A stretch of 52,885 nucleotides of DNA, the filler included, from Catajapyx aquilonaris (Eukaryota), in NCBI GenBank assembly GCA_000934665.2. It is 2 parts of 2 records of this genome, joined end to end, with 100 filler letters (N's around TTAATTAATTAA, not from the genome) between each part and the next. Parts side by side here need not be neighbours in the genome. Positions count along the whole stretch, not along the records: positions 26,520 to 52,885 come from JYFJ02005217.1; 1 more part is not named here. One strand, 5' to 3'. The position numbers and the translations under genes are program-made. The notes beneath the pieces were generated by a model. That model ran no database searches. It saw only the letters and a list, made by a program, of their open reading frames with translations, and was not told the DNA's origin. Shown here piece by piece: positions 1 through 52,885 of this stretch (its first letter is position 1; the number at the start of each line of letters is the position of its first letter).

Positions 1-382
1 GGCACCCATTTCACAATTCAGTGTCAATCAGCAGCACCTTGCAGTAAATATGAAATTCCCAACATTTGTTTCCAAACAACTAATCCCTTTGGATTAGCTA
101 ACGATCCACGTTCCACAACAGACAGCACAGTCATATCGACATGTGGACATTGGAAATCATTACAGAGTTCGTGACGGATTCAATATTGTCATATCATACC
201 TATATATGAGCACTGCGAATGGACGATTCTAGTGACGAAAAATGCGACGTAACCTTTGATTGGGCAAAGATTACCAACAGTGATGCTAATGCATTGGCAT
301 TGGCGTGAAACTGACATGTTGCAATGCAATTTGAGCATCAGGATAGACTTATGCATATTTAGCCTGGTAATGATAATTTCAG

Positions 383-2474: not shown

Positions 2475-2480
2475 AATAAA
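2475..2480 (+). terminator. Candidate polyadenylation signal of the Sox gene (3' UTR about 1.3 kb)
   Basis: AATAAA followed directly by a GT-rich (GTT)n tract at the end of an AT-rich UTR-like stretch. Confidence 0.55.
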
Positions 2481-32219: not shown

Positions 32220-32313
32220 AGATAAGTTTTATCACAAACAAATTTCTGATCTATATATTAGTGCTTTGATCATGATCATGATGCAATAATAATGAGAGTT
32301 CCAATAACTAAAT

Positions 32314-32629
32314 TCAATAAGGAGTGTTTCGCCAAGCAGGCGCATGAGCTCCATCCATCTCTGGAGCAAAGGAATTATTGCCAAGCAGGGCATGATGTGC
32401 CCCACCAATTGCAGCTCCACACTCATTACATGTTGACACTTGCATGGCTCCTCCACATTCACCAATTGCATACACATGTCCATTGGGACACTTGAACCAA
32501 TGACCTTGTCGCAGACCCATGGCAGCAATAATGCTTCTTTTCTCCTCATTGGAAATGTTGATGCCACTTCGCAGCATATCAGCCAAAGTCCTCAGCTTCT
32601 GAGTGACAGCCCTTTCAATGAACTCATAT
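32314..32629 (-). CDS. ZNFX1: ZNFX1 last coding exon (RZ-type zinc finger)
   Basis: ISNEEKRSIIAAMGLRQGHWFKCPNGHVYAIGECGGAMQVSTCNECGAAIGGAHH...APEMDGA..PAW, then stop. Confidence 0.95.
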
Positions 32630-35600
32630 CTAAAGAAGAGAAATGTACATTTAAAATAACAGTAAAACTGCAGCAATAATACAAATAATAATCTATTCTT
32701 CCAGGTAAGGCACAGCCCCTGCAGAAAAATTTTTCTTCCACACTCATGCATTCATTCGAGTACATGGTGTTCTGTAAACATGCAAACAAACCTACAAGTT
32801 TGTATTGATGTGAGCAAGGGATCACATATGCAGGGGGATCATTTGGCTTCCATCTATTTTTTACTGAGGCAATCAGCTAGTCAGCTATAAAGTTTGCAGC
32901 AACTATACATGTGGAGGGCATCTTGCTGGTAGTACACATGCAACTTCTGGATAGCTATACTTTTTAAGACTGCCTGTGGTGTGCATTTGAATGGGGTATT
33001 TTGGAGTCAGTGAGATAATCACTGCATGAATTTGAAGTAAATTTACCATGCACATCACCCAGACCAACCACCTGCAGAAAATGCAGTTCTACATGCACTC
33101 CATTGCCTGTCAGGTGCAACCTTCCAGGATATGCCATACAAAGCCATTTCATTTCACTTGTCAATTATAAGGTGGCGCACAAGCAAATGACATCGTGGTC
33201 CTCTTATTCCTTAAAAACAAAAAGGAAAATATCCAACCTATCTATTCCAAAGAGCAAGTCAGTGAGCTCCTTATGGCACTGCCGTGTATTTACAGCTGTG
33301 TTGGCTATTGTGCAACAACTCTCCAATCGGTATAACTCCTGGATCCTCTTCAGTCGAGTCAGCTCATGGTGAAAATCTCCGACCTCCTGCTCACTCACTT
33401 GCTCTCTCTGCATCAGTCGAAAAAGAAGACTGTTGGCATGCACAGAGAGTTTCTGCAGTAGGTCTTGCTGCACTGGGTTTTGTCCACCTTTTGATTCTTG
33501 CACAATCTGGCTAGCCTCTGCCATCAGCTTGATTTTCACCTCCATTGAATACAGCTCTGCCTGATTGAGATGCTGCACCTTCTTGTTGCCTGACCTTTTT
33601 GGTAACTGAAGTTTCTTCAAGAGAATACCCTTGTAGTTAACAAACAGCTTCTCCTCTGAAAAGAGTATCATGCAACAAAATTAATTCCACAAGTCCACTT
33701 TTGAGTTGATTCACCATGCCACTTATGATTATTTTATCACTACACAGGGTGCACCAGTTGTTTATGACAAAATCACTTGTTCAGGCATGCATTTAAAAAA
33801 AACAGTGACAAATAAATGGTACTCATCATGATTTCTGTTACTTGTGAAAATGTTCTGAACACCCAATAACTAACCATGTAGAGCAAGTAGGAGCTCATTC
33901 TGTTTCTTTGCAAGTGTATTCAGTGCTCCATATAACTTCTGCTTCACATTACAGATGTCCTTGTAGTTCTGTTTTATTGCATTGTTGTAGCGAGGACATC
34001 GGTTAATTAGAGTCTTGCAGCGGGGGCAGTGCTTCATGCCTATCTCATCGTCTTTGGTTGCCATCCAATGATCCATTCCTTCAGCCTCGATCACATGCTT
34101 GCAATCTTGCAGATATACAAATCTTGCCTCAGGATCATCCTCATTTCCAAGTAGAAAAAATTCCTCGCTGCTAAACTTCTTTGGATCACATTCACGGCAG
34201 AATGGAGGGCATGGTTCACCACAAAATCCTGGACACATGTGGCCGCACTTTTTAATCTTCTTAGGACAGGGTTCATCGCAAGGATCCCTGTTGCATATTT
34301 CCCAGCACCGCTTCGTACATTTCATATGTGGGCATTGCCACATGCATCGTTCCTGCAATCACAACTCACATAAGTTTGAAATTCACCAAGCATCTACTAC
34401 TTTAAGCTAACTACAATAACACAAATAACGACAAAAAGCCACCTTTTCTGTGTCATAAATCAAATTATTGTTTTCATGTTGAACTGTCATGATGAATATG
34501 AAAGTGGAACCCATTTTACTGTATCATGCATCTATATATCTATATTTTAGAAAGTTTGTGGGTTTGTGGATTTGTTTATTTGTTCGCTATAAAAATCCAG
34601 GAGAATGCCCCTACACTCCTGTGGTGTGCCGGAGGGCGACCCCCTCACCGGCCGGCATCACCTTGCCAGCAGGGAACACCTCGTCAGCCACCTAACCATT
34701 CCCTTCCCTGCCTGAAGGCTCCTTTCCAGCCATTCCAGAATCGAGCCACTCTCGCTTGCTGACCTTGCTCCCAACATGGTCCGCGCCTTGCCCATAAACG
34801 TGGCACACAAGGCGTTAGCAGCCCATTCGATCAGCAGACTCCATCTAGAGATTACCGACTCCAGAGCTCCGCAGCACACCTGATAATCGGTCCTTTTTAG
34901 AACCAACCACCACCACCTTACCAATGGCCCTTTTAAGGGTCAACCACAAGCTTCTGTAACGAGTCGCCAAACCCCCTTAATATAGCATACCGCGGGTGAC
35001 TTTTTATGAGGAATTTATAGCTGCATATTTCAGCTTCTGAAAATAAGCCAAACTCCCACAACACGCATAACTCCTTTCCCTGCTCCCCTCAACAATATCA
35101 ACATCAACAATATCCCCTCAACAATTTTCCATTTTTCAAGTTTCCATGGACATGTCCTCATGCACCAATACCTAGCATATTAGGAGTATTCGGCAATTCA
35201 GATTTTTCTGAGATGCGTCACGTGATATCTGAGTTGTTAGCCCCGCCCCTCAGAAGATTATTGCCGAGCGGCTGAACTGAGAGACCCCCCTACCCGCCAT
35301 TTGTGCTGCATCCCAGTGATGCAAATGTTCGGGTATTTCGGTGCCGTATTTCGGACACTTGCGGGTAATGGTGCGGGTAAAATGAAAATGCGGGTAAAAT
35401 CGGGTATTTTCAGGTCCTCTCGCGGGGTTTTTGGGCATTTTGCATTGGCAACACTGCTGCATCAATAACATGAATTTGTTGTCCGCCATGTTTCTCAGAA
35501 AGTAAGTGAGGTCAGGAGTACACTAAGTTCCTGAGCTTTGGAAGTCAGGTAGGGCGCATGCGCACTTACTTCAGGGGTCGTGGCACCTGATTTGCCGAAC

Positions 35601-38600
35601 ATCCAAACAGCCCAGGAAGTCAGATTCCTGAATTGCCAAATACGCCTAATAAACCAGTGGTGGAGGGGAGGGGTGGAGGGGGGGGGGGGAGTGCCAAATT
35701 AGTAAATGGTAAGGTGAGGGGCGAAAGGGCGACGGAGGCGAAATATTTTTGGGTTCAAGGTCACACAAGCTAATGAGAGATTTGAATTGGTATAGCTTAT
35801 TGAAGAATTCCTTTTTTTCCCCAGCCTCTTTGCAGAGCACTTGGAGAAGCTTCTCGGAGCACAGTTTGGGAAACTGAACTAGATTAAATATGACATTGTA
35901 GACAAACCTGACACTTTGTGCATGGCTCTCCACACCACTTCTTGCACTTGCTGTGTGAACACTTGTACTGACATGCTTTCTTGCATGGTGGGCAGTTTTT
36001 GGAGCATGGCACACCACAGCTGACAAGGGGGGAAATAAAACTTAATTAGCACTAAACATTGTCACATGCACCAGTATTGATAAAATACATACGGATGACC
36101 ACAGACAAGAGGACGGCCACAATCGTCATTGCATGCCATGTGGATCCTTCCCTGCATGCATTCCCCACATGTTCCACTGCACCTGTGCCCACATGCCAAG
36201 AGTACGTTGCAAGGATGCTGACACTTAGACATCAAAGTTTCCATTTTTACTCGGCAAACTGTAAGAATTTAAAAAATGAAAAGTTACCATCACGTGAGCA
36301 TTGACTTGGTGCAGGATTACGTGGTCTTACAAAGGGTCACTCACTCTACAAAATAGTTGCTCAACAAAGTCGGGTCTCATTGAAAAAATACGTAAATGTA
36401 GGATTGTACAGTACTGGCCAATAATCGAGGCAACGACTAGCGACATTTTCCCGAAGCGGCAGAAGAAGGAATCTTGCTCGCCCGGCTTCTAGCATGCTTA
36501 TCTTCGATTCCTTCTTCTGCCGCTTCGGGAAAATGTCGCTAGTCGTTGCCTCGATTATTGGCCAGTACTGTACTGCCATGCTTACAGATAGGTAAAAAAA
36601 TCCTCATATGCAATGCGCTGCAGGATCAAGAGTTGCTTGTCAGGCTCAATTGTGCCATTGTAGCTGGATTCCACTCCATCTGAACTAGTCTAATAGAGGC
36701 CGAGAAATAACACTCCACCATACTGCACATTGCAGACCAGGCTTTTTTTTTCCAAAGCATAGCAGCATAAATCTGCACCCCAATGTGATACATGTGAACT
36801 ACATTGCGCAATACCATAGGAAAATAAGACTATGTTGAAAATAATTGGTCTAGGTGAAAATCTCCCTTTCTTTCAAGCATTTCCTTTCCTGATAATAATC
36901 CAAATACTCCACACAAACACAGAGCAATCAAGGGAATTCTACAAAAGATAGAGTTGTCATCGTAAAAAAACATCTCAGAAATGGCTAATTTTTGGAAATG
37001 TGGATAGCCACATATTGTTGACGTAATTGCAGGATAGCCATCACATTCGTTCACATGAAAAATCTGCTGCATCCCTCCCAATGTCTCTGATTTCAATTGG
37101 ATGATACGTGAGATAAACTCTAGGCCTTGTTGACCAACTCGGGAAGGCATGCATTTCTGCAAAATCGTCTCCTAGTTCCTAGAAATAGTATCACTACGAT
37201 TTTTGCGGCTCCATCCCAGAGTGACACCAAAGCACTGTTCCTCTTCTTAAAGGGACACTCCACTCAAAATACAAGTTGGGTTCTAAAATTCGGGCAAAAA
37301 ATCCTGATTCCGAGGGTATAAGCAGTTTTTTTAAATTATTATTTACACCCTTGAGGCCTTCTGGCCAATGTAGGGGGGAGATTTTTCCACCATTTTCTGA
37401 CTCTTACTTCTTCTCTTACTCTTATTTGTTACTTTTGGAGAAAAAAAAAAGGAAAAAGAAAAAGTCATGTAAAGGAGGGAGTCCCTCCCTGAGTCTGATA
37501 CAGGGAGGTAAAATAAAAATATTGATTGATTGATTGATTGATTGTTGACCAACTCGAACATAAGGAACATAGACTAGCCAGTATATATCAAGAAGTAGCT
37601 GGGGGAGATGAAGTGGCGCTACGGTAACGCGCACGCCCACGGACATGAAGGTCCCGGGTTCAATCCCCACCCGGGGTTCCCACCTTCATCCGTGCAGAGT
37701 TGGCCCATCTCTGGGTTCATTTTGGGTGGAAATTTCCTAAAGACTAATCCACGCGGGGGAGTTCACAAAATGACCACTCAACGACAGCGCACATGCACTT
37801 CGCACATCCCCTCCTACCTACCCTTGGAGTAAACGAATAAGATCCTTCTTAACACGCTCCAACAAATCCCGATGGTCACAGAAATAGGGCCTACCATGTA
37901 AGAGACTTACATTTAACACTTGTTTCTGTTCTTATTTAGATAAGAGCAAAACATTCCCTTCAGTACAAAAAAGGGTAGTAAGACCTCCGTGGCGGAATAA
38001 AAGTATCGAAACAATGTAGGCACACCAAGACCTTCACCAATTGATTTGAGCTGTACCACAGGTCTTACTCAAGCAATTCCAATATTAACTCTCACAAAGT
38101 ACGGTATCCTTTCTGAAAAAAGTTCCATTAGTCATTCCATGTAAGTGTGTTTTCTGAAATTAAGACCCAAGCCACAGAGGGCAGATATGAAGAAGCAAGC
38201 GGCTGCAAGTGGTGCCTACTGCAACTCGAAGCAGGAGTTTCGTTTACTTGCAAAAGGGGATTATGCAATCTATACAATAAATTAAATCCATAACTTCTCA
38301 AATCCCACAGTTAAATTAATTGCTCTCACCTGAGTCACGTTCGTTGCAAGGAATCAGAATGTTGTGTTTGCATGGTGATATGAGGCCACTTGGCACAAGC
38401 ACTTTGCAAGGCCCACAGGGTTCGAAGCAACGCTTGTCACAAGGATGACCACAGGCAAGGAACCTTTCACATTTCACCCTGCAGTGCTTCCTTTTCGCAT
38501 CTTCACAACACAACACTTGCACTTTATGATTACATTCAGGAACCAACTTCTCAACTTTCACCTGCCAAATAAAACAATCAAGACCAAATTCACATTGAAA

Positions 38601-41600
38601 CATTATAAGCAATCACCTGGCAGTTTCCACATGGTTCGGCACAAACAAGGCGGCATGGGTGACCACAGGGAAGAGTCCGTTCACACTTCTTCTTGCAGAT
38701 AATAGTGGCAGAGTCCACATGACATTGTGTTTTGAACTTGTGCTTGCAGGCTGGTAAGACCTTATCCACCATCACAGCACAGCTGCCACATTCTTCATAG
38801 CACAACTTTGGACATGTGTGGTCTTTGGAGCACCCTACTGATTTTTTAACACATGACTTCCGGCACCTGAAAGGAGAGAAAATTTAAAATCACATTTCAG
38901 CAACTCTACATGATGACATACTTGTATTCCAAATGATCTGGATCACTATCCACGTGGCATTTTCGCATACACTGGTGCCCACACTGAGTTCTCACGTCAC
39001 ATGGTTCATAGCATGTGAATTTGGCTGGGTCCTGGCAGCAAGGCATGTCCAAGTCATGGGCACATAAAGGATGGGTTCTCTGAACAGTGGTGTGGCACTT
39101 GTATTCAGCAACAACAACATGACAAGGCAAGGTATGCTCATGTGCGCAAGTAAGTATCCTTTTCATGGGTACTTGGCAGGGTTTACATTTTTCCCAGCAT
39201 CTCATAGGACACACATGATCTTCTCCACACAGGATCTTTGTGCATGGCTCCATACACTTGTGTTCCTTATGCTCTCTGTCCCACACGTGGCACATGCTGC
39301 GACAGCGATGACCGCAATCAAGAGCAGCATCACATATGGCATCACAACCACCCTCGCGAACCTTGGCAAAGTCATTTTTGGTGGCTGCAGGTGTTACTAT
39401 GTTGTGGATCTGACAATGTAGGGGAAGGTGTGTACCAATGGCATCTTGCTTTTCCAGAGTTGCCTTAACTTGCCTCCACACATGGCTCTGGTTCTCCAGA
39501 TTTTGCATATTTCCTAGGATAAACATGCCTTGCTTTGCACGAGACAGAGCAACACAAATTCGATTGTCAGTTTTCAAAAAGCCTATCTTCCCCTCCTCAT
39601 TGTTTCGAACGAGGGATAACAAAATTATGTCGTTTTCTTCCCCTTGGAAGTTATCAACAACAGTTATCCTCACTTCTTGGCATGCTTTGTAATTCTTCCT
39701 GAGCTGAAGAAGTATAAAACAAATCATTATTAGTACATCACATCATTATAATTAAACAGCAATCTTATCATTAACTTATTATCAGCTGCCTTTTCAAATA
39801 CTGTAATATACCTTCTTCAGAAGGAAAAGCTGTCCGGTGTATGTGGTCAGTAGAGTAATTTTATCTGGTGTGTACCCCTGAAGAATCAGATAACGACAGA
39901 GCTCAAGAAGAAACTCTGCTTCATGCAAATTGGACTTGCTAGCTGAATCTGCAACCTGGAAAATGAGCCACATGTTAAACTTGCAATAATACGACAGTGC
40001 AAGGCTCATTATAAGAGAGTGAGCCAGTCAACCACATGCAAATTTGAAATATGAAGAAGTCCAGGAGCAAACTGCTAAAAATCTGCACAATTCTCATCTG
40101 CAAGTGGGCAAAAGATTGATATCCACAGCAGGAGAGGCAGAAGATAAACATGATCAAAACATAATCCCAGCCCAGACCTCTTTAGGTCTAATAGCCATAA
40201 GGACCCATAATATACAAGGATATAAAATACAGCAGAGACCAAAAAATTCAATAATGTCCTGGAGGTCATTTTCAACTTGATGAGGGGAGCTATAACCTTC
40301 ACACTTCACATGATGTTGATTTATTTTGAGTGAACCATAGCTCATCTCTCTCTCTCTCTCTCTCTCAACACTATTCATTACCTTACTTTTAAAATGTAGT
40401 TAGCACATCACAATAACCCACATGCCTCACCTAGATCGCTAGATGATTGATTCATTGATAAAAATTGTGCTATCTTGCCTCAAATATCAGCACATTGGTA
40501 AAAGCGGGCCCGGGGGGNGGGGGGGGGAGAGAAATACAGTATTTTTAAAATGCGCATCTGCTGGCTATACTGATATAAATTTTTTTAACTCTCTCTGCTA
40601 AATGTTTTCATCAGGTGGCAATGCATCAGGCGAGACTTACTATTTGGAAACTGGTATTTTTTCCCACCAAGAGAGGAACTAGGCCTAAGAACATGAGCCT
40701 GAGGAAGCGACAAGGCTGATCAATGCAATTTGACATCCACACTAACTTACTCAAACTTACTAGTTGATAAAGGAACTCAGTTTCCTGCAATTATTTATAG
40801 TGCTAGTGGTGATTCATTGAGAGTCTTAGACCATTAAAAGAGGGTTTGGAATAGTTCAGTGAGTTAAATTTTCTATGTCCATTTCACAATCCTTGAAGGT
40901 TCAGTAACTTACCAATTCTTCTTTCTCATCATGTGTCACAAAAAATAAATTCTTCTTTATTCCATCTATAGCAGGATAGTTTAACACTGACTTGTCATTG
41001 AGGAGGTGTGGGTAAATAGCAGGGACCACTAAGCTTGCAATTTCAGGCCTCATTCTGTGCTGCACCTCCAATTTTTCACAGTGCACACCATTGTTCAGCA
41101 TCCGCTCAAAGAGGGAGACATCTAAGTGGTACTTTGTGGCCAGTTCATATACAGTAGTCGATGGACGAAGCTGCTGATGGTCACCTGTAAGCATGACACA
41201 AACAAAATCATTATTTGTATGTTTCTATCTCACTTTGGACTCTAATAGTCCGGACGTTAAGGGATTCAACCGTGCATTTGGTGAAAAAAGCATGAAATTT
41301 GGTACAAATGTCCCTGAGACCATACTCTTCAAATTCAGATATGGTGCCACGCCCGTTTTCGCCCAGGAGGCAGGTTGGCCACCCTGAAGCGACCCTCTGC
41401 TTGGCCGGGTCCTTTTCCGCTTTTCACCCGACATGCCAGGGCAGAATTGCACTCCCTACTCTGCCCAGGGCCAGGAGAAAAGGCCTGGCATTTAACGAAT
41501 GTCAGAAATGACTAACGCACAGCGCCCTCCCTTAGGAACCTCCCCTTCCCCCCATAAAGGGCACCATCCTATCACAGGGTAAATATGTTTTTTTTTTTGA

Positions 41601-44600
41601 AAAAAGGTAGGTTGAGTGACTTTAAAGAGTTCTTACCAATCAATATTAGATGCTGGCATGAACGTGTAACAGATGCCACTATATGGGACTCCAGGACCTC
41701 AGCAGCCTCTTCCACAATCACTGGAACAGAGCAAAAAAATAGTTAAAACAGAGTAAGGCAACCTTCATTATGAACACATACCAATGGGGCATCCCACACT
41801 TTTCATTACTTCATTGTACTTGGCTGCTCCAGTAGTGGTCATCCCAATTACCTGAGCCCTCCCCAGTATGCCAGCATTTTCTATTGAGCGCTGCTCATTA
41901 AGCCTGCCAACAGCTTCTTTGTAATGTGCTTGTATCTCTTCTAGCTTACGATCCCACCTTGCCATCAAGTCAGCTCTCCAGCAAGCATAAAGATTCAACC
42001 TCTCACGTGGTGGAAGATGCCACATGTCCTCTACTTGCTGAAGGTGCTTGTTAGCACTGACATCAACCTGAGACAAATAATCAAGGACTGCCTTCAGGTG
42101 GGCTCCTTGTTCATTAAGAGTGGCTAATCTTGCATGAAGTGGCCAGGCTATATCCTCAACATAATGGTGTTTGGCTTGAGCTTCCAGATTATCTAACTCA
42201 AACTGACATTTCTGGATCTCATGGTTAATGGTGCCTGAAGACAGGCCAAAAACCTGTCCGATGTACTTCGGAATGTTCACCAGGGCCTTCAGATCATCTG
42301 GTAGGTCATCCTCTTCTTCAAAATCCCAGTCATTATCATGGTCTTCTTCAGCATCAAAGAACTCTTCTTCATTTTCTAAATATTCATCCATGTTGTGATC
42401 ATCGCCCAAAGCAGGTTCTATGTTTCCCTCTCCTTGATCAATCACCTCCTCAATGGGCACATTCCAATCAGGGTTGTAGTGATTCTCCAGGTTTAATCCC
42501 AGCCAGTAAATGATGAGATTATCTCGATGCTTTTCTTCAACAGGATACAACTTTAGGTACCGCTGCTGCTCACTGTTCAAAATCCCATTCTCCATAAACA
42601 AATTCTCATGAATGATACCATGACCACCTTTCACATTATCCACAATCTTCTTGGTCTCTTCATACTCTTCTTTAATCCCATAGCATTTGTGCTTGATTAG
42701 TGCTTCATTTTTATAGGAATCTATTGCCCTGAGTCTTTGCTGGCTCAATTTTTGTCGCAACTTCACCAGATTATACTCATCGACAACTTCATTTTTTGAT
42801 CGGCTACCAATTCGTACAACAGACTTTGTATACCCAAGAATTCCCTCTAAAAACTGATCCAGGGCATGGTTTGTGTAACAAACGACCAGAATCGGTGAGT
42901 GTGGATTAATCTCTTGCTTCCACACTTCTGAGTTGTGCAACAGGATCTGGACTAGCTTTAGTCCTAGGTATGTTTTACCTGTTCCTGGTGGACCTTGAAT
43001 GACCACAAATTTTTGAGTCAGTCCAGACATCAGAGCGGAGTGCTGTGACTGGTCCAAATGCATTTGCTCTGGTGTAGGCCATGATTCTCGTTGGTTAAGG
43101 GCAACACTCCTCAGCACAGGATCTACAGGAATGTACGTCAACGGTTCTTCAGCTTCATCATCAGACATATCTTGAATTATAAACTTCTCCCAGGACTTGT
43201 CAGCATCATTTTTCTTTTTCTTTATTCTCTCCTTGAGGAACTCTGCCTGAAAAACATGCAACACTGTGTGGTCCCTCAGTTTAGCATCAGACACAAGGCT
43301 GCTTAGGTTGTACATTGGTTCAATCCCTGCCATTTCCTGCAGATCCAAGTATGTTGGAAGAGCAACCTTTTTTGAGGCTTCCACAATGTACTCCTGCATG
43401 GGGAAGTTCCTCTCAGTTGTTGTTTTCAGTGCTTCCAGAAAGTGCCGGTAGGCCTCAAAGTATACCTCAGCTTCTATCATGGTAAAAGTACCCTTCAGGT
43501 CACCACGGTTGTGATCCATCTCCATTCTTACAGACACTCTGCCATTTTCCAGTTCCTTCACATCACGTTTCACAACAGTTCCAATCAAGACACTTGCGAA
43601 CATGTCACTTGTGAAACACAAAAGGGTGCCACTTGTCAACCTCTTCGAATGTTCCCATTTGAGTTTCGAAAATGGCTTCTCATCAAATTGAAAGCAATGA
43701 ATGAGATCATCATTGGTCATTTTGCACTCTATCCAATGCACCTTCTCGTACACCTTGACATTGTTGAAACGTTTAGGTTTTCCTTTTTTTTTTTCTTGTG
43801 TCCCAAAATGCAGAAGATATTCCTGTATCCCTTCTCTAAGAGGACCTAGAAAGTCCTCCCTCAAGAGCCGGAACTGCACATCTAAATAATGTTCCACATC
43901 TGAATATGCCCCTTTAATAATGTTCGGTCTCAAGAAAGGCTTCATAGGGCTCAATATATCTCCTGGCAATGGGACTACACTCAGATTTCGAAAGTCATCA
44001 GGTGGCTTCATCATGCTCAGACGTTCAATCTTTGCTCTACTGTACCGTACCTTGGTCATGTTATCAGCTGCCTCATCAAGCCTGCGTTTCAGAGCTTCAA
44101 AATCTGAAACCAGCTGCGGTGCAAGTTGCACATTTTTCAGCATGAGAGGAGCTGCAATTATGAGGGTGCAGCAAGCATTAACATTGTTTTGCAACTTTTC
44201 ACATGCTACATTTGGCGTATTTTGCATAATGTACTCATAGAAAGTTCTTATGTGGTACAAAAAGTCCGGAATTTTTGCCTTGCGTTCTGCATCCCTCTCC
44301 TGCATGTGCCTCCTCTTGTCATTTTCAATCTGCATAAGTTTCATAGTGAAGTTTTCCAGGACCTCCAGAAATCTGTTGCTAGTGGACATAGCCACTACGT
44401 GTTGAATACTCAATTGATGCAGTTCATGGCGACATACTTTATCCAAGATGCCAGCCACAAGAAACATTCTGTCATCCTTATCACTAATCTCTCTATTGAC
44501 AAGATCTTCATATCCATTATGATCATTGGTGAGAAATACTATTATCTTAGATGTATCTTCTTGGGATAATTCCTGCAACTTCATATACCCTAGGCGGTAG

Positions 44601-45115
44601 TGTCTCTCACTATTTGAGCTCTGGCTTCCCCTTTGCCTATTAGATCTTGGTCTTGCTCTGCCACAACTATCAGCATGCCGCCCATCTTCATGATAATTCT
44701 CATTAAAATGTGGCTCTTGATGTGCATTGTAATTCCCACCATAATTGGCACGATAAGTTGTGTGTGCTGGTGGAGGGGCCATATCTACGTTGCTTCCTCC
44801 CCTTGGCCAGTTATTCCTGGGTCTAGCCCCACCAAAATCTTGCCTTCCACCTCTTCCTTCATGATGCCCATAACCTCGGTAACCCATTCTACCAGGCAAA
44901 GGTATCCCACCACCCTCATATTGGTGAGGTGGAGGAGGAGCCACATTCCTATGTTGTTGACCCCCATGACGTGGCCTTCCTCCTCTACCTGATGAATCCA
45001 TTCCTAGTGGTGTCTGGCACCTTAACCTCTTGGAGGGAATCACCACATCATCTGCAGCACTGGACGCTTCTTCTCTCAACTTATTCTTGACTTTTTTTTG
45101 TGCTTGTCTCCTCAT
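32314..45115 (-). CDS. ZNFX1: NFX1-type zinc finger-containing protein 1 (SF1 RNA helicase, NF-X1 fingers, RZ finger); 12 coding exons, 6588 nt, about 2195 aa
   Basis: Exons 45115-41782, 41720-41637, 41184-40913, 39955-39812, 39703-38922, 38866-38617, 38561-38330, 36258-36093, 36019-35908, 34352-33875, 33655-33238, 32629-32314, all GT-AG and phase-consistent. Motifs: HYLDVQFRLLREDF, GPPGTGKT, VEEAAE, GDHQQLRP, VDNFQGEE, VALSRAK, repeated CGHxC fingers, GHWFKCPNGH...CGGAM...C..C...IGG..H. Confidence 0.96.
33238..33655 (-). CDS. ZNFX1: ZNFX1 coding exon 11 (helical/coiled-coil)
   Basis: Phase 1 to phase 2 fit; SEQEVGDFHHELTR. Confidence 0.85.
33875..34352 (-). CDS. ZNFX1: ZNFX1 coding exon 10
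   Basis: ERCMWQCPH...CGEPCPPFCREC...LQDCKH...CPRCKT. Confidence 0.92.
35183..35646. mobile_element. PIF/Harbinger-like MITE in a ZNFX1 intron
   Basis: TIR GGAGTATTCGGCAATTCAG / CTGAATTGCCAAATACGCC; flanks TTA / TAA. Confidence 0.75.
35314..35456. mobile_element. hAT-like MITE nested in the previous element
   Basis: CAGTGATGCAAA...TTGGCAACACTG; 8-bp TSD CTGCATCC / CTGCATCA; internal CGGGTA repeats. Confidence 0.75.
35908..36019 (-). CDS. ZNFX1: ZNFX1 coding exon 9
   Basis: CGVPCSKNCPPCKKACQYKCSHSKCKKWCGEPCTKCQ, in a frame other than the ORF track's. Confidence 0.9.
36093..36258 (-). CDS. ZNFX1: ZNFX1 coding exon 8
   Basis: CGHRCSGTCGECMQGRIH; ttacAG / GTATGT. Confidence 0.9.
36409..36570. 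mobile_element. Young foldback Tc1/mariner-type MITE (162 bp)
   Basis: About 65-bp perfect inverted arms starting CAGTACTGGCCAATAATCG; TA TSD. Confidence 0.88.
37601..37835 (+). mobile_element. tRNA-derived SINE, family C (3'-truncated)
   Basis: GGGGAGATGAAGTGGCGCTACGGTAAC...GGTTCAATCCC; homologous to 47461-47789. Confidence 0.82.
38330..38561 (-). CDS. ZNFX1: ZNFX1 coding exon 7 (NF-X1 fingers)
   Basis: CGHPCDKRCFEPCGPC; donor GTGAGA. Confidence 0.9.
38617..38866 (-). CDS. ZNFX1: ZNFX1 coding exon 6 (NF-X1 fingers)
   Basis: CRKSC...CGHPCRLVCAEPCGNCQ; tttcAG / GTGATT. Confidence 0.9.
38922..39703 (-). CDS. ZNFX1: ZNFX1 coding exon 5 (helicase motifs V/VI, start of zinc fingers)
   Basis: VDNFQGEE, NRICVALSRAK, CGHRC repeats. 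Confidence 0.95.
39812..39955 (-). CDS. ZNFX1: ZNFX1 coding exon 4
   Basis: SKSNLHEAEFL...ITLLTTYTGQ; 144 nt, phase 0 at both ends. Confidence 0.93.
40913..41184 (-). CDS. ZNFX1: ZNFX1 coding exon 3
   Basis: GDHQQLRP...SLFERM...QHRMRPEI; ttacAG / GTAAGT. Confidence 0.95.
41392..41600 (+). mobile_element. 5'-truncated SINE, family B
   Basis: CCTCTGCTTGGCCGGGTC...GCAGAATTGCACTCCCTACTCTGCCC is near-identical to the copy at 24.6 kb. Confidence 0.85.
41637..41720 (-). CDS. ZNFX1: ZNFX1 coding exon 2 (Walker B)
   Basis: VIVEEAAEVLESHIVASVTRSCQHLILIG; ttccAG / GTAAG; absent from the ORF track. Confidence 0.93.
41782..45115 (-). CDS. ZNFX1: ZNFX1 coding exon 1 (RG-rich N-terminus, helical region, helicase N-half)
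   Basis: 3334-nt open exon; acceptor CAG at 45125-45123; donor GTATGT at 41781; Walker A GPPGTGKT. Confidence 0.95.
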
Positions 45116-45277
45116 GCAGTAGCTGATAAGGGGTGAAAGATTGACTTATAATGCAGGCAAGCTTAACCCATGTGTCATAATTGTGCAAGATGAGTGAATG
45201 ACAACATGACATGCAACATTTTTATACAGCGTTAAGGCAAAGATTTATCATCCCAGTGTTGAATATCTGTTTGTGTG

Positions 45278-45567
45278 ACCGAAGCAGTAGTGGTGTAGTG
45301 GTATGGTGCTAATCGGGAGGTCCTGGGTTCGAATCCCGGAGACCGCCGACTCTGATCATGGTTTTCTGTGGTTTCCCATGGTCATCGCAGGATAATTCTG
45401 GGGTCGTTACTGTAATTATAGGCCACAGCCGCTTCCTTCCTTACCTATCCTTGCCTCAATTCCGATGAAAAAGTATAGTAAAAATGGAAAGAGTTCCAGA
45501 CAAAAAATTGGGAAAAATCCCCCCCTAATAAAGCCTAAAGGGCTGATAATGGGGTATCAATTATTTT
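45278..45567 (+). mobile_element. tRNA-derived SINE, family D
   Basis: B box GGTTCGAATCCC; TSD TATCTGTTTGTGTG(AC) at 45264 and 45568; second copy at 48527-48654. Confidence 0.85.
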
Positions 45568-45670
45568 TATCTGTTTGTGTGACTGACTAAATTCTGTAAG
45601 TGTTCAGCTTTCAAGTTTTATTTCATACTCTCTGTAAATGTCAACAACTCTTTTACGTGTCATTTAATAA

Positions 45671-45924
45671 TAGATACCCCGTGATAGGCCTCCTTGGGCC
45701 ATTTAGGGGATCATCTTATAAATACCCGACGTTAATCACTGCCTGCGTTGTGGATTTTGATTGTGGGATAAAACAGGAGAACCCCAAGAAAACCCACGCG
45801 AACACGGAGAGAACCCATGGAAACTCTATCCACATAAGTATCCTCCATCTGACCCGGGGATCGAACTCGGGACCTTAGAGGTGGAAGGCTGCGGCGTTAA
45901 CCACTTGGCCACCGTGACGCCCTC
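45671..45924 (-). mobile_element. tRNA-derived SINE, family E, with a V-domain-like core
   Basis: A box GGTGGCCAAGTGG, B box AGTTCGATCCC; core GAGTTTCCATGGGTTCTCTCCGTGTTCGCGTGGGTTTTC; flanking direct repeat GTGTCATTT(A/C)ATAA. Confidence 0.8.
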
Positions 45925-45950
45925 ATGTGTCATTTCATAAGCAGCTCTCA

Positions 45951-46135
45951 AGGTGCGTTTACATGTGAGTGATTTGATTTTGTGATGCCATAGCCGAGCA
46001 ATGAATCCAATATTGTTTGCGGTGAAAGTAACAATCGATTTTCGCCTCAAACAATACTTGTTACTTTGGTTACGCAGCGATGTTACCGCTGGCAATGACA
46101 TCGCGTGATCTAATCGCTCACATGTAAATGCACCT
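45951..46135. mobile_element. PIF/Harbinger-like MITE
   Basis: TIR AGGTGCGTTTACATGTGAG / CTCACATGTAAATGCACCT; flanks TCA / TTA. Confidence 0.8.
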
Positions 46136-46189
46136 TTAATCATTCTGTTCATCCATATTCACATGAGCAAACCTCCAAAGTAGTAGATA

Positions 46190-46739
46190 CAGTAGAACCC
46201 CGATTATCTGACTACTCGGTTTATCCGACTGTCCCACTCCAGCAATAAATCTGTTTTCTCATCAAATACTGTAATGCAGGGCTACGAAGCATTAGTTGGG
46301 TATTGCCTTAGTTAAATTGATTATAAATACAGTGCAGCAGAGTGTGTATGTAAAAGACAAATACTGTCGTACTTCACTATTTCAGGGGTCGAATTTTAAA
46401 ATTTTTGTTCAGATGCAAAGTTTGCATTCCAGACTTTTATCTTGGAGTGCTTAATTTTTAATTACTCGGAATTGCCATGTTTAAAAGCATGACCAACTGG
46501 AATGCAAACTTTGCACTCCAAGGCTCAGTTTGGAGTGCAGATGACAATTTTGGAGTGCAAATTGCACCTTTGCATACAAATATTTCTTAGAAAACCATAC
46601 TATTGTACATTATTTCGGGTTTTTATGTTTTTATTGCCTTCCATTCAAGCTTCATTTGATCCTCGGATTATCCAACCTTTTTGGTTATACGACGATTCCC
46701 CAGTCCCGTGGGTGACGGATAATAATTGTGGTTCTACTG
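46190..46739. mobile_element. pogo/Tigger-like (Tc1/mariner) MITE with a nested hAT-like MITE at 46383-46599
   Basis: TA-CAGTAGAACCCCGATTATC...GTGGTTCTACTG-TA; the inner element is an inverted homolog of 22512-22749 with flanks CTATTT / CTATTG. Confidence 0.82.
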
Positions 46740-46962
46740 TACCAACAACATTTCCCTCTATGGCCATATTGCCATCTTCGTCTGTGTATAAACAAACCCC
46801 AGTTTCACTGCAGCTTAGATCCACAAGAAAAATACATGGTTTCGAAATCGGATCTGAATATACTTGATGAGCTGAGTCAAAAATACTACTTTTACAGTGC
46901 ACAATCATTTCTTTCAGAGGTTTTTCAAAATTAACCATTTCATTTATAAATATTACTGATAT

Positions 46963-47333
46963 GGGGAGGTGTGGTGGCCGAGATGGAAACATCTTGGCTT
47001 GCTGAGTGAAAGGTCCCAGGTTCGATCCCCGCCTGAGAGCTACCTTTCGTCTGCATCAGGAAGGTCTCTCACCTGCACCTTGGAGGTGTCCGGCAACCTA
47101 ACCTCCTGGGGGACTCCACATGGCCCAACGCTTGACATTGCACTTGCACCCATGTGCCCTCCCCAACAATCCTACCCTTTCCCAATGTCCCTGTTTCCTT
47201 GCACCGGAGAAAGAAGCTGGAAAAATATAGAAAACTGATGGTGGTGTGCCGCACCCCTAGAGATCCCGTACGGGACATCACAGGGTAAAAATATTTAAAA
47301 AAATTAAAAATTAAAGAAATTTTTTAAACACCC
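46963..47333 (+). mobile_element. SINE family A copy
   Basis: GGGGAGGTGTGGTGGCCGAGATGG...GGTTCGATCCCCGCC; A-rich tail; possible TSD CTGATAT. Confidence 0.88.
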
Positions 47334-47460
47334 CTGATATTAGGCTATTATTAACTACCTACCAGTGTGCCTGAAGTATAAAACCAGAAAGACCTGTGAC
47401 CAGCGAGCTATTGAACAAATCAAAGGAATAAATGAATTTGCTTGAACACTCATAATAGAC

Positions 47461-47789
47461 TTTTTTTTTTCCATTACCCCATTGGGAGTTACATCTCCTT
47501 TAGGGGAGTGGAATACCACCATCTGGGTGGAACCGGTATACTAAGATAGTATTTAGTTTGTTCCAAGGGTAGGTGGGAGGGGATGTGCAAAGTGCAAGTG
47601 CAATGTCTCTAATCGTCATTTTGTGAACTCCCCCGGGTGGCTTAGTCTATCAGTAATTGCCACCCGAAACGAAGCCAGAGATGGCCCAACTCTGCACGGA
47701 TAAAGGTGGGAACCCCGGGTGGGGATCTAACCCGGGACCTTAATATTCGTGGGCGCGTATGTTACCGCAGCGACACTTCATCTCCCCTT
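47461..47789 (-). mobile_element. SINE family C, full-length copy
   Basis: Poly-A tail (T run at 47461); TSD CACTCATAATA(G/A)AC at 47447 and 47790. Confidence 0.87.
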
Positions 47790-48069
47790 CACTCATAATA
47801 AACTTCTAGGGGTTCCCTTTTCAAAGCAGGCTGACAATGGGATTGGTCACACTCTATGCACTGTGCAACAGAACTTGCATATTCTCATAGCCCTGTACAT
47901 TTGCCCATTTTTCACCGTAACATCATTTCAGTACAGTACGAGAAGCATTCCAAAAATTTTTACGGCGATCAAAATTATGGAAATCCACCTCAGTTATTGT
48001 GGCATGCCGGACACCCCTTGGTTATACCGGCATGTTGGTTGACCTCATTTTATACCAGCATGCCACTTT

Positions 48070-48408
48070 TTGTTTTTTATTTATTTATTTACTTATTTAT
48101 TTCACCCTGTGATACAACTGTAAGCTGTTATAGGGGGGTGGCATACCACCATCGGTTTTCTAGTATTTCATACTTTTTCTTCGTTCTCCGTACATGGAAG
48201 CAAGGAAATGGGGTAACGATAGGGATTTTTGGGGAGGGGACACAGGTGCAAGTGCAATGTCGGAAAATGGGTCATGTGCAGTCCCTCAGAAGGCTAGGTT
48301 GCCAAGACGCCTGGGTCTAGACCCACTAACGCAGGCGGAAGGGAAATCCCGGGCGGGGATCGAACCCGGGACCTTTCGCTCAGCAATCTCGGCCACCATG
48401 CCTTCCCC
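48070..48408 (-). mobile_element. SINE family A copy
   Basis: B box GGTTCGATCCC; (AAAT)n tail; TSD ATGCCACTTT at 48060 and 48409. Confidence 0.88.
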
Positions 48409-48526
48409 ATGCCACTTTATGTGAGGTAATATGATATGAGTGGGCAAATGTCTTGAGCCATCAAATCATGTGGAACATAAAGTACTGAGAGGAAGACCTT
48501 ACTCCTAGTGCTTTGAAACAGGGATT

Positions 48527-48654
48527 TAATTATCCTAGAAAGACCGTGGGAAACCACAGAAAACCACGGTCAGGGTTGCCGGCCCCGGGATTCGAACCCA
48601 GGACCTCCCGATTAGCAGTAGGACGCCTTATCCACTATGCCAACCTGCTTCGGT
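48527..48654 (-). mobile_element. SINE family D, 5' fragment
   Basis: ACCGAAGCAG...TAGTGGATAAGGCG...CTGCTAATCGGGAGGTCCTGGGTTCGAATCC. Confidence 0.8.
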
Positions 48655-48858
48655 AGTGGTAGTAGTACAGTGCTGGACAAATTAGCCGTCGCTGAATGTT
48701 TTTTTTTCCGTCGGCGACGGCGCTGCGTAACCTGGCAACCCCGTCCGGTGGGCCAATTCAAACATCAGCGTATGGAGAGTGCTTCCATTGTTGCCACTGT
48801 TTACAAATCGAGGGAGTGACGCGGACGACCCAGTGACGGGTCTCTTCTGCCTGCTTAC

Positions 48859-48975
48859 ACAGTATGTGCAGGGATGCGCAGGAGAAAACGGGAAAATAAT
48901 GATGTTAGAAGCAAACCACGTTGGGAAGATATTATCCCTGGACTCAAAGAAAGGTCTTCGTCCACAGCACACGAA
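48859..48975 (-). promoter_or_regulatory. Candidate ZNFX1 promoter and non-coding first exon
   Basis: CpG-rich patch with a GTAAGC donor at 48858, no ATG and a pyrimidine-rich start. The ZNFX1 ATG exon begins at an acceptor and so needs an upstream exon. Confidence 0.45.
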
Positions 48976-48980
48976 ATATA

Positions 48981-49145
48981 GGGGCCGTGCAGACGGGCCT
49001 AGCTTAGCCGCGGCTGGCCGTGGCTGCGACGGTTCACACCTAGCGGCCCCCTAGCAACGCCACGGCCAGGGCACGGGCCAACTTCCTGGAAGTTGGCCAG
49101 GGCCGGGGCCAGCCGCGGCCAAGCTTGGCCTGTCTGCACGGCCCC
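48981..49145. mobile_element. GC-rich PIF/Harbinger-like MITE (165 bp)
   Basis: TIR GGGGCCGTGCAGAC / GTCTGCACGGCCCC; 3-bp TSD ATA. Confidence 0.88.
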
Positions 49146-49347
49146 ATATTCCACCCCTGAGGAGGGGGTGTCAATTAATATCAGGGGTGTGATTGAAAGT
49201 GCGTCAACTGGCGGATTCTTTCAGTTTTTGTGTCTTTTCCGCGTACTTTGACACCTCGAAGACGAATGGAGACCATGCCCTGTATGTCAGACAGCACGTC
49301 AGTCTCGTAATTTGTCCCCAAAGATGTCATAATTATCTCAACATGGC

Positions 49348-49545
49348 TTCTGCTGTTCTGCATATAGGCCTACGAGTACGTGTCGTTCACGTCATATTCG
49401 CACCAGGAAGAGATACACGACTAACGCTTGTTGTAGGTGTTCATATTATTGTGTCCAATCCTGTACATGTCATGTTAGTCGTGTATCTCTTCCTGGTGCG
49501 AATATGACGCTAACGACACGTACTGGTATATGCAGAACAGCGGAA
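49348..49545. repeat. About 200-bp foldback (MITE-like hairpin)
   Basis: Arms CGTCATATTCGCACCAGGAAGAGATACACGACTAAC / GTTAGTCGTGTATCTCTTCCTGGTGCGAATATGACG, plus outer arms. Confidence 0.8.
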
Positions 49546-49797
49546 CCTCCACTCATGATGCAGTTCTCCATCGAAAAGCTTGAGAGGATAATTGAGGAAC
49601 CCCGTGTCGTAAAGATACCATGTCACTCTCAAGCAGTGGAAAGATGCGTGAAGGTGGTAACTGAAGCATCCGAGGCAGTTTACGGAAAGGAGGCAAGAGA
49701 TGGCTATATTAGGTCAGTATGTAAATCCCGTGACTTTATGGCTTCATTCAGAAGTAAGAAAGACTTTAATGTACCCAATGTACCATTTCCTAAATAA
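49537..49797 (+). pseudogene. C-terminal remnant of a DDE transposase (hAT/hATm-like)
   Basis: EPPL...IPCHSQAVERCVKVVTEAS..VYG..ARDGYIR, recalled as a recurrent arthropod transposase C-terminus; stop overlaps AATAAA; N-terminal part absent. Confidence 0.6.
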
Positions 49798-50354
49798 ACT
49801 GCACTCTGTACTTATGTAGCAGTGTATGACAGTGTATGTGCTTATCAACGGCGGCGGAACGTATTTCTATTTGGGGGGGGGCATGGGAGAAACTATTCTG
49901 TATTAATACACCCCCCCCCCCCGCTCGTTTTCAAAGCGTACATNAAACGGGAGGCATGAATGTTTTTTGGGGGAATTCGCGATTTTGACGAGCGTATATC
50001 TCTGAAACTATAACAGATACGTAAATAGTGAATAGAGACATTCTCATAGGGAATTTTACCAGCTTCAAATTTGTACATTACCACATTCTGGCTAGACCTA
50101 CCCGATTTCGAGATTTAACCTCCTCAGACCCGAAAGCGCTGTGTTTGATATACTTGCTCGAAATTTTGTGTATAGGCATAAAATGGCGCTGGGAACAAAG
50201 AACCATCCTACACATTTTTCAACATTCTGCACCATCTTTGAGTTAGAGGACTGTATTGCAGGTAATACATTGGGTCTTAAGACTTCTGAAATGAAATGTG
50301 GTATTGCTAGAAATACTAAACAACTTTCTTATCTCTACATTTCTCAACACTTTT

Positions 50355-52877
50355 TTATTCTGTATGATACAGGGTGAAGCAGTTACGGGCTGCTTGGAGA
50401 CAAAGGAAAACGTTGCATTGGGTGCACTTTGTACGTGAAAAAAAATTGCATCCTTTTTTCTTGCATCTTGGCACAGTTACTCCACGCTCAAACTTCACCA
50501 CCTCTGGAAAGTGCTTTCCATTGTGGCGGAAACCTTCCCCCAATGATGGTTGGTACTTCCTCTTCTTCTTACCCTTTGGGATACCCACTCCACTCTGTGC
50601 CACCAGCTCCTCACCTAGTCTCATCTTGAAATCAAAGAACTCCATCACCTCCTCCTTTGGAACTGTACCCAGTGCACACTGCTCCCTGTACTCAAACCAA
50701 GAATTGGCTGCAGCAAGATCTGCCATGTGCAGGATTACACGAATAGTCCACTTCTTGGATCGAGCTCGGGAGGGATAGAAACTTAACATACGGTCGCACA
50801 GATCCACGCCTCCCATTTTCTCATTGTACTGTTTGACCACATACGGCCTGGTGACATCAATGTGGCGCTTCTCCTTCTTTGACCAGCGTGAACAGGTGTC
50901 TGTTGGCTCAAGTCCATGCCCAGTTGACGCGAGGTAGACTGGTTTATTGTCATACCATTTGCATATGGCAATGGCATTGTCACATCGGACAATCATGGCA
51001 GATGATCCCCTATCCTAAAAATTGAGTAATAAATAGGAATCCTTAGATGTATTTACCAAACAGTGCAAACATACCATTTTCATGTCTTTGTCTGTGGGCA
51101 GCTTGCTTCTTGCTGCTCTTGGAATTCTGTTGACCATAATAGTCCCTGTCCCGTAAATCTTTTCCTTGTTTAGGTGTTCCAGAAGTGGCATTGAGGTGAA
51201 GAACCTGTCAAAGTAGAGATGGCTACCTCCTGCTACTTCTGTAACCAACTGGGCCACCATGCTGGCTCCTGAACCCAGGTTCAGTGCTTTGACCTCTTCC
51301 GTGTATGAGGTAGTTCCCTGATATAAGAAAAAGTTCAGGACCTTGCCAGATGGGGCAGCCAGGACAAGATTCTTCAAACCAACTGGGTTGGGTTTTCCTG
51401 AAATATCAACAGTGCTTACTCACTGATCTGAAAAAATGATTTGTAGTCAAATTTTACACTGCAGGCACTACTTTGTTGGCATTCTTGCCACTGATAGCCA
51501 AATGTATCAAAAACGTAAGAAAGGTTGCTTGGAATGTCTTTTTTGCTGTCATTACCTGGAAGGTATTGCTTGCACACAACAGCCCCAGAAAATGGCACTA
51601 TCTGTTCATCGATGCTCATATCACCTGGCTTTGGAAGTTGTTGGCAGATATCTTGAATTTTGCTCAGAAGAGGTCGAACTTTCCAAAACCGGTCCTGTTC
51701 CCGCTGCTCTTTTGAAACATCGTCATCAAATAGGAGTTTCATTCGGGATCTGATGAAAAAAAATCTGTCTCGCGTCATATTGTCCGCCACCGCTGGAATT
51801 CTTGTTCTGGCCTCCCAGAACATCCTTATGCGGGGGAACTAAAGGAGCGAGAGCAGTGATAAGTAAATGTATCTAGGGCACCATGGTTACTAGGACTGGT
51901 TGACACCTGAATCAGTATCGGCTGAATTAGATGCGGTAGGAAACGTCTTACCTTGAGGCACGACATCATGAAATTGAGCCCAAAGAATTTTTTAATCTCT
52001 TCTGATGTAATATCACATGGTTTGCCCAGAAGAACTTCCCTTTGATTTGTAGAAAATGCTATTGTTTGATAGAGCTCGTTGTCAAAGTATTTGCTGAAAT
52101 ATGTGTAGGCTTCTCCGATGTTTTGGGCAGACCCCGCAACAACATCTTGAGGCCCAGCAAACACCGCTGGGTTAAAGCTGATGGCATATGGCATATTTTC
52201 AATAAAATTAATCACAAATCACTGACTAATAATCTTACGGACCTTTGTGCTGCTCTCCATATTGGAGGTCTTACAGGTCTAGATAGGGCTTGCGGTGGTG
52301 AAAATGGCCCATCACCTTCAGAATCACTATCCTCTTCATATGATGGGCTGTATTCATCATCGCTCACATCACTTCCCTCCTCTACTGCTCCCTCAATATC
52401 CGAATCATCACCATCAAATAGAGCCAGGATAGCATCGGGATCCAAATTCCTCCCATAACCTGGATAAACAAGATTGGCAAATCATGCGAGCATGATTCGA
52501 GGACTCTTTCTCATTTGACAACTAGTCCGCTCTCTGCCATCAGAAGTTGGATAACAATGCACTGACCTCACTCAGGCACGCTCGACAGAGAGCACGCCAT
52601 CTTGGATTGGCTGCTGTGGCGGGCATGGTATGCGCACGCAGACTCTTACATGTGCATTTAGGAGGTATTGATACTATCTTTCAGTGGTGTGAGTTTCACA
52701 TGTCTACTTTCAGTAGTGTGAGTTTCACATGTCTACTTTCAGTAGTGTCTTATCCAAGAGGATATTCACTCTTACATATTTTGCATACATGTACAGTGCT
52801 GGACACAATAGCATATAACAAGTGTAAACAACGACTTTGGCGTTACCTGGCAACTGGTCGTGTTCGGACATCGTCAT
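50355..52877 (-). CDS. piggyBac-family transposase (PGBD2/3-like), 6 exons, about 579 aa, apparently intact
   Basis: Exons 52877-52847, 52459-52243, 52177-51952, 51838-51556, 51397-51075, 51014-50355 (1740 nt, GT-AG, phases fit). Acidic N-terminus; SIDEQ, YFDRFF and MGGVDLCD catalytic motifs; KPNPVGLK; WYDNKPV; C-terminal RC...C...TKCTQCNVFLC...NCF..YH; AATAAA overlapping the stop. Exon 1 and the exon 2 donor are less certain. Confidence 0.9.
52678..52748. repeat. 29-bp tandem repeat, about 2.5 copies
   Basis: CTTTCAGT(G/A)GTGTGAGTTTCACATGTCTA repeated in intron 1 of the transposase. Confidence 0.85.
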
Positions 52878-52885
52878 GTGGAGAG

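Follow-up and report, generated by a model that had tools for sequence, protein, structure and literature searches.

Introduction

piggyBac transposases use a cysteine-rich (Cys-rich) domain to bind the ends of their elements, which they cut and paste at TTAA, and the transposases of Trichoplusia ni piggyBac and Myotis piggyBat are uninterrupted open reading frames (ORFs) inside elements with defined ends. A piggyBac gene whose catalysis is intact may be a source of new transposon tools, or one of the rare cases in which a working DNA-cutting transposase is retained by its host. Here, we describe a piggyBac-superfamily gene of Catajapyx aquilonaris (assembly GCA_000934665.2), located on the minus strand at 50355-52459 of a 52,885-nt stretch of DNA (the window; positions count along it), whose coding sequence is divided by four introns and whose predicted enzyme looks complete.

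In PMC5381638, three classes of piggyBac sequence are distinguished: PBLE, with a transposase between two untranslated regions and two terminal inverted repeats; PGBD, defined by one copy at an orthologous position and by Ka/Ks evidence of selection; and PGBD-like, which takes in the rest. Introns inside the transposase part are given there only for PGBD5 (5-7), PiggyMac (2) and TPB2 (12), with none for PGBD1-4, and the PGBD3 branch, which includes mobile spider and moth elements, is described as having a 3' splice site before the ORF and AATAAA behind it. Pokey of Daphnia, a mobile member of the superfamily, carries an intron of 68-84 bp that is spliceable by reverse transcription PCR (PMC3849761), indicating that introns do not exclude mobility; the preliminary description of this locus had started from the premise that canonical piggyBac transposases are single-ORF, which Pokey contradicts. 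The multi-intron piggyBac genes that we found in the literature are domesticated (PGBD5, TPB2 and PiggyMac), and the intron-bearing mobile Pokey has one intron. Our literature search returned no metazoan piggyBac gene with at least four introns together with an intact triad of catalytic aspartates (DDD) and a Cys-rich domain, with the proviso that the supplements of PMC5381638 may list intron-bearing elements.

When compared to these systems, the Catajapyx gene shares with the PGBD3 branch (human PGBD3 and CSB-PGBD3; spider SmiPBLE7 and Smi-PGBD-like3; aphid Api-PGBD-like3; fish and tick PGBD3-like proteins) the domain order, the DDD triad, the C-terminal Cys-rich domain, and the layout of an acceptor before the ORF (here at 52460) with AATAAA behind it (50354-50359), but differs in having four introns in the coding sequence, an identity of 36-49% and a long isolated branch. 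Pokey is likewise an arthropod piggyBac with a short spliceosomal intron, and has a DDD triad and a zinc-finger motif (PMC3849761); unlike our gene, with its four or five introns, a gene body that appears single-copy and no ends in the window, Pokey occurs in many copies with a single intron, defined inverted-repeat ends and TTAA duplications. PGBD5 of vertebrates and lancelet is also a metazoan piggyBac-derived gene with several introns (5-7; PMC5381638; PMC3902484), but its catalytic motif is not conserved and it has no Cys-rich domain (PMC5381638, table 1), whereas both are intact here, and the matches of our gene are PGBD3-like, not PGBD5. PiggyMac and TPB2 are, like the present gene, intron-bearing (2 and 12 introns, respectively, in piggyBac-derived host genes; PMC5381638), and the catalytic domain of PiggyMac has three aspartates (PMC5389696), as is the case here; unlike it, these ciliate proteins are 1065-1220 amino acids (aa) long and act in programmed DNA elimination, a role of which we saw no sign at this locus. 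T. ni piggyBac (6x67/6x68) and piggyBat (9c0f) are distant in sequence from the gene, and a profile of the gene pieces and their relatives matches them near end to end (E 3.7e-42 and 9.1e-55, respectively). By the rules of PMC5381638, the gene is PGBD-like for now. It may be placed in a PGBD3/PGBD4-like branch, the PGBD3 assignment coming from the database labels of its matches rather than from a tree that includes PGBD3 itself.

Results

Four introns divide a stop-free transposase frame

On the minus strand between 50355 and 52459, five pieces from a stop-to-stop frame list join via four GT..AG introns, whose splice sites were placed by eye and then checked by script. The joined exons contain 568 codons and zero stops; without splicing, the frame reaches a stop after 81 codons. 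All four introns have pyrimidine-rich acceptors, and the GC content is 28-36% in introns 1, 3 and 4 and 45% in intron 2, compared to 42-48% in the exons. The claim of the preliminary description that the pieces splice through GT-AG introns into one stop-free frame therefore holds for four introns and 568 codons. The features of the gene, in the order in which they would be transcribed, are as follows.

52460 side, minus strand: 5' boundary of exon 1; acceptor ending in tttatccag (cttgtttatccag), phase 1; no in-frame ATG in exon 1
52243-52459, minus strand: exon 1, 217 nt; acidic N-terminal region (DSDI...SDDE, W-x5-F-x-P) that aligns with the N-termini of relatives
52178-52242, minus strand: intron 1, 65 nt, GT..AG, 31% GC; retained in a sibling copy of the gene
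51952-52177, minus strand: exon 2, 226 nt; PF13843 begins here (profile 2-53; E 2e-07, 31.1 bits, cut-off 22.4)
51839-51951, minus strand: intron 2, 113 nt, GT..AG, phase 0; the profile passes from 53 to 56 across the joint
51556-51838, minus strand: exon 3, 283 nt; PF13843 56-148; first catalytic aspartate at 51608-51610 in MSIDEQIVPF
51398-51555, minus strand: intron 3, 158 nt, GT..AG, phase 1; the joint restores YLP-G-KPNPVGLK as seen in relatives
51075-51397, minus strand: exon 4, 323 nt; PF13843 150-251; second catalytic aspartate at 51207-51209 in HLYFDRFFTS
51015-51074, minus strand: intron 4, 60 nt, GT..AG, phase 0; removed in a contig of sequencing run X5
50355-51014, minus strand: exon 5, 660 nt; PF13843 258-349; third catalytic aspartate at 50802-50804 (GGVD) and a fourth aspartate at 50793-50795
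about 50364-50468, minus strand: Cys-rich domain, within exon 5
50355-50357, minus strand: TAA stop, end of exon 5
50354-50359, minus strand: AATAAA polyadenylation-type hexamer, a candidate signal read from the sequence; overlaps the stop codon

The predicted spliced product would be about 580 aa long, with a short upstream exon supplying the start codon.

The introns are genuine

The introns of the gene are genuine, as seen from the continuity of a domain profile, from alignment with relatives and from the splicing of intron 4 in run X5. PF13843 (DDE_Tnp_1_7) matches exons 2-5 at profile positions 2-53, 56-148, 150-251 and 258-349 of 349, with 31-54 bits each against a curated cut-off of 22.4, and since the interruptions fall between neighbouring profile positions, no protein is lost at the joints. 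Aligned with 12 full-length relatives, the exon pieces meet end to end, the largest gap being one residue: the joints at MSCLK/FPRIR, YLP-G-KPNP and W-x5-F-x-P are gapless and that at KDMKM/DRGSS shows the one-residue gap (slashes mark the joints). The W-x5-F-x-P motif matches the relatives unbroken only when intron 1 is removed. Residues 2-566 of the joined protein align to homologues of 582-596 aa with an E of about 1e-147.

Of five public sequencing runs that contain this DNA, four were compared with the window: X1, X2 and X3 (DNA), and X5 (a different sample and study of the same organism). X5 contains a 619-nt, window-identical contig in which 51014 is followed directly by 51075, the exact loss of the 60-nt intron 4; the same joint was present in 0 contigs in each of the DNA runs X1, X2 and X3. 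Across 49945-50340, the depth of X5 is zero and that of the DNA runs is 120-3200 (contig depths, here and below, are not copy numbers), indicating that X5 is not a whole-genome DNA library; its library kind is unrecorded, and it is most probably RNA. The cover of the window copy in X5 excludes introns 1-3 and 50355-50392. Reading X5 as RNA suggests that the gene is transcribed and spliced. Of the junctions for which the preliminary description had proposed a check in RNA, that of intron 4 appears in X5, whereas that of a 387-nt intron, which it had placed upstream of exon 1, does not.

The enzyme looks intact

The four exon pieces that match PF13843 tile it from 2 to 349 of 349, above the curated cut-off. 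Within this domain, the first aspartate (MSIDEQ, 51608-51610) aligns with D268 of T. ni piggyBac (6x67), the second (YFDRFF, 51207-51209) with D346 of 6x67 via the family profile, and the third (GGVD, 50802-50804) with D447, and an equivalent of D450 is also present. Exon 4 alone matched no piggyBac chain of the PDB by phmmer, and D346 was placed by the profile search. At the C-terminus, the pattern C-x4-C-x7-C-x2-C-x4-C-x6-C-x5-H is in register with the full-length relatives, as is a His-x-Pro-Glu motif upstream of it. Pfam zinc-ribbon models gave no match to the Cys-rich tail at E up to 5, the sole Tc5 C-terminal match being below threshold. Judged by these alignments, the enzyme looks intact, with a complete DDD triad and Cys-rich domain. 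On both counts the preliminary description was right: it had reported that all three catalytic aspartates are kept, and that the Cys-rich C-terminal domain is full.

Relatives of the gene

Protein searches with exon 5 returned 33 and 13 matches at 36-60% identity, with the higher values on partial cover only; the matches that carry names come from fish, ticks and a fly and bear the labels piggyBac-derived protein 3(-like) or si:ch211-255f4.7. No protein in these searches exceeded 60% identity to exon 5, and no close orthologue was found. Over the whole protein, the identity to the nearest relatives, which are fish and tick proteins labelled "PGBD3-like", is 36-49%. A quick tree of 34 rows, which is not robust, left the gene outside the fish and tick groups, on an isolated long branch paired with another long branch at 44% support, a pairing that we do not trust. 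The fish relatives P0034, P0037 and P0043 are uninterrupted at the sites of introns 3 and/or 4.

The adjoining ZNFX1-like helicase gene gave best named matches of only 28-48% identity (31-35% when the whole query was covered), scattered among insects, spiders, lancelets and molluscs, an invertebrate-type mix. Since this neighbour is also without a close match, the missing orthologue of the piggyBac gene says little, and close relatives of the host seem to be missing from the searched collection.

A decayed sibling copy and a repeated 3' flank

A single unbranched DNA contig with a depth of 39-50 spans the gene body (50487-52065). Elsewhere in the genome there is a sibling copy, about 95% identical, that is found in the DNA runs and in the contigs of X5. 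It is without 50515-52021 (1507 nt, with a 2-nt microhomology at the joint) and 52255-52387 (133 nt), and has 1-nt indels at 50438, 50476, 52416 and 52446. The sibling retains intron 1, indicating that it arose as DNA; it is a DNA-level derivative that has decayed and lost internal sequence. Cut-and-paste elements typically give rise to derivatives with such internal deletions. In exon 2, the sibling and the gene show five differences (3 amino-acid-changing, 2 silent), which are too few for a selection test.

The depth of the region behind the gene differs from that of its body, and this region may be a terminal part of an element.

50119-50354, minus strand: 3' flank between the stop and TTAA, a candidate 3' terminal region of an element, with raised depth

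Within this flank, 50143-50340 has a summed DNA depth of 185-473 against 39-50 for the gene body (4-10x), and 3-4 contigs per DNA run vary at 50223. On the other side of the gene, 52519-52617 is at about 3-5x the gene-body depth.

A TTAA at 50115-50118, followed by CCTCC, lies 237 nt beyond the stop and is unpartnered within the window. The reverse complement of this candidate TTAA end, the tail of the diverging contigs and the inverted end of the neighbouring repeat were each searched for in the window, and none matched a second time. That neighbour is a short repeat at 49945-50118, with a DNA depth of 1200-3200 against about 43 for the gene, whose other copies diverge exactly at the TTAA (50115-50118); its left end is masked by N and homopolymer runs near 49870-49944. 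The repeat could be a TTAA-inserting element, and the TTAA more likely belongs to it than to the element of the gene. TTAACCC does not occur near the gene, and repeat finding over 45000-52885 shows no terminal repeats. Where the preliminary description saw no clean TTAA-CCC end at the 3' side, a TTAA followed by CC is thus present, with an ambiguous meaning; the paired search that it suggested yielded this 3' TTAA but neither paired terminal inverted repeats nor a 5'-side TTAA in the window.

The 5' end of the gene

Enumeration of in-phase pairs of an ATG and a donor upstream of exon 1 gave two candidate first exons.

52847-52877, minus strand: putative first exon A; ATG at 52877, 10 codons, donor CAG/GTAACG, phase 1
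52572-52626, minus strand: putative first exon B; ATG at 52626, 18 codons, weaker donor TGA/GTGAGG at 52572, phase 1

Candidate A would need a 387-nt intron (52460-52846) and sits in a repeat with a DNA depth of 4700-25000. The region of candidate B is one through which the contig of the sibling copy runs straight. For neither candidate was homology or read support found, and no contig in the runs examined connects exon 1 (52459) to any upstream exon. The full-length relatives extend only about 14 residues further at the N-terminus, so that a short first exon suffices. The preliminary description had included candidate A as a 10-codon exon behind a fifth intron of 387 nt; its phase and donor fit, but it lies in a repeat and has neither read nor homology support. 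Accordingly, of the 579 aa given there, 568 codons stand, and the remainder is candidate A.

In this 5' region, high-depth repeat pieces lie at 52466-52501 (1600-2500) and 52717-52885 (3200-25000). The latter contains candidate A and has partial matches at 48665-48739 and 49447-49470. At 52678-52735, upstream of the piggyBac gene, a 29-nt unit is present as a tandem duplicate with 97% identity.

Sequence neighbourhood

Downstream of the piggyBac gene and on the same (minus) strand lies the ZNFX1-like helicase gene (32235-45145), with ZNFX1 and AAA_11 domains on an exon of 1125 codons, AAA_12 on later exons, and an RZ-type zinc finger. A palindromic unit of about 200 nt that resembles a miniature inverted-repeat transposable element occupies 49348-49545, with 55-nt arms that are 95% complementary. 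Partly overlapping it, on the plus strand at 49333-49794, is an open frame of 154 codons (…PCHSQAVERCVKVVTEAS…) for which no Pfam match was found at E up to 5. tRNA-like (GGTTCGAATCC-type) pieces that look like short interspersed elements are present at 45307-45397, 48528-48617, 47708-47741 and 48342-48375, in both orientations and 79-93% alike. A GC-rich block at 48975-49150 has 44-nt inverted arms that are 89% complementary.

Discussion

The gene model is well supported and describes a structurally unusual piggyBac gene. As to its nature, we cautiously favour an intact copy from a piggyBac-like transposon family that carries introns and is low in copy number, and consider an anciently tamed host gene less likely. 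On the favoured reading, the locus would hold a complete piggyBac-superfamily transposase gene with four spliceosomal introns and a short upstream start exon, and the protein, with an RNase-H-like DDD site and a zinc-binding Cys-rich domain, would cut and paste at TTAA. Terminal repeats would lie beyond the window on the 5' side and would be unrecognisable on the 3' side. The gene would be the one intact member of its family, and the sibling of about 95% identity a decayed one. Both the internally deleted sibling and the 4-10x depth of the 3' flank lean to such a family. The 3-5x depth of 52519-52617, the lack of a close orthologue, and the acceptor and AATAAA layout, which mobile members of the PGBD3 branch also have, count on the same side. 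The element may then be mobile and the protein active, and the start codon would probably be supplied by a first exon.

Several observations weigh against a transposon. A host gene would account equally well for the single-copy-like gene body and for the lack of inverted-repeat ends in the window. Flanking stretches at 50114-50312 and 52544-52716 have depths of 28.6-47.4, like the gene body and as expected for a single-copy gene, and a blastn search of the gene and both flanks against the window found no second copy of either. The sibling is similar to the gene from 50393, a position inside the coding sequence, to 52598, and neither limit is a recognisable element terminus. A sensitive inverted-repeat scan paired no terminal inverted repeat in 49950-50360 with one in 52470-52885 at a score of 10 or more, and no TTAA occurs within 52400-52885. 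Where contigs depart from the window at the TTAA (50118), their tails are mutually dissimilar, with an agreement of 0.62-0.68 that is little above chance, which fits a TTAA that is part of the neighbouring high-copy repeat. Exon 1 lacks its own start codon and begins at an acceptor in phase 1. Four introns are far above the number in any mobile piggyBac that we found in the literature (Pokey: one), and if the fish contigs are genomic, the introns would have arisen in this gene's own lineage.

The alternative that survives best is a domesticated, lineage-specific host gene, which would have been kept by selection and gained four introns while retaining the triad and the DNA-binding tail, for use by the host as a nuclease, recombinase or DNA-binding factor. 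We consider this possible, if unlikely. Besides the single-copy-like depth and the absence of inverted-repeat ends or a TTAA pair in the window, it draws on the four introns in a transposase-derived coding sequence, a trait of the domesticated PGBD5 (5-7), PiggyMac (2) and TPB2 (12) in PMC5381638. It also draws on the intactness of the 568 codons and of four splice-site pairs next to a sibling of about 95% identity with two large deletions and several indels, and on the gene being transcribed and spliced, should X5 be RNA. Conversely, the absence of an orthologue-like match (best matches of exon 5 at 40-60% in fish, ticks and fly) speaks against it, weakly, as the ZNFX1-like neighbour is also without a close match, and transposon families are the more usual setting for a recent sibling that arose as DNA and lost internal segments, and for a 3' flank that is repeated. 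Of the two readings offered by the preliminary description, a young multi-exon transposon and a domesticated recombinase, the sibling and the 3' flank tilt the choice to the transposon, and the domesticated recombinase is the less probable.

A bolder form of domestication, which we regard as quite improbable, is a lineage-specific recombinase of this arthropod-like animal, with four or five introns and a full active site, that would be a metazoan counterpart of PiggyMac. If true, it might act as a programmed DNA-cutting enzyme for the host, or as a standing source of transposase for the abundant repeat that ends at TTAA beside the gene.

Very doubtful, in our view, is that the five exons are the tail of a host-transposase fusion, spliced onto an upstream gene past the end of the window as CSB is onto PGBD3. 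The good phase 1 acceptor of exon 1, its lack of an in-frame ATG and the AATAAA behind the ORF would fit a fusion, as would the acceptor and poly(A) layout for which the PGBD3 branch is known (PMC5381638), and the first-exon candidates in the window are weak or lie inside a repeat. Against this, the relatives are just about 14 N-terminal residues longer, phase-fitting mini-exons of 10 or 18 codons exist in the window, no upstream gene is visible in the window, and no contig links exon 1 onward. Finally, that the introns are false and the gene a decayed transposase copy, its damage bridged by chance GT..AG pairs, is hardly credible: dead transposon copies are often given false introns by gene predictors, which thereby span the damage, and introns 1-3 are without read support, but the four gaps sit between adjacent profile positions with no residues lost, the pieces abut in comparison to relatives, the intron ends are canonical with pyrimidine tracts, 3 of the 4 introns are lower in GC than every exon, and intron 4 is precisely absent in X5 through a joint not seen in the DNA runs.

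A piggyBac copy with four introns and an intact DDD triad that also appears to be expressed, as X5 would indicate if it is RNA, is unusual. If the gene is tamed, it would represent an arthropod domestication of piggyBac in which catalysis was kept, a case undescribed in the literature that we found. If, as we cautiously favour, the gene belongs to a mobile family, it would mean that a piggyBac lineage can bear a host-like exon-intron structure.

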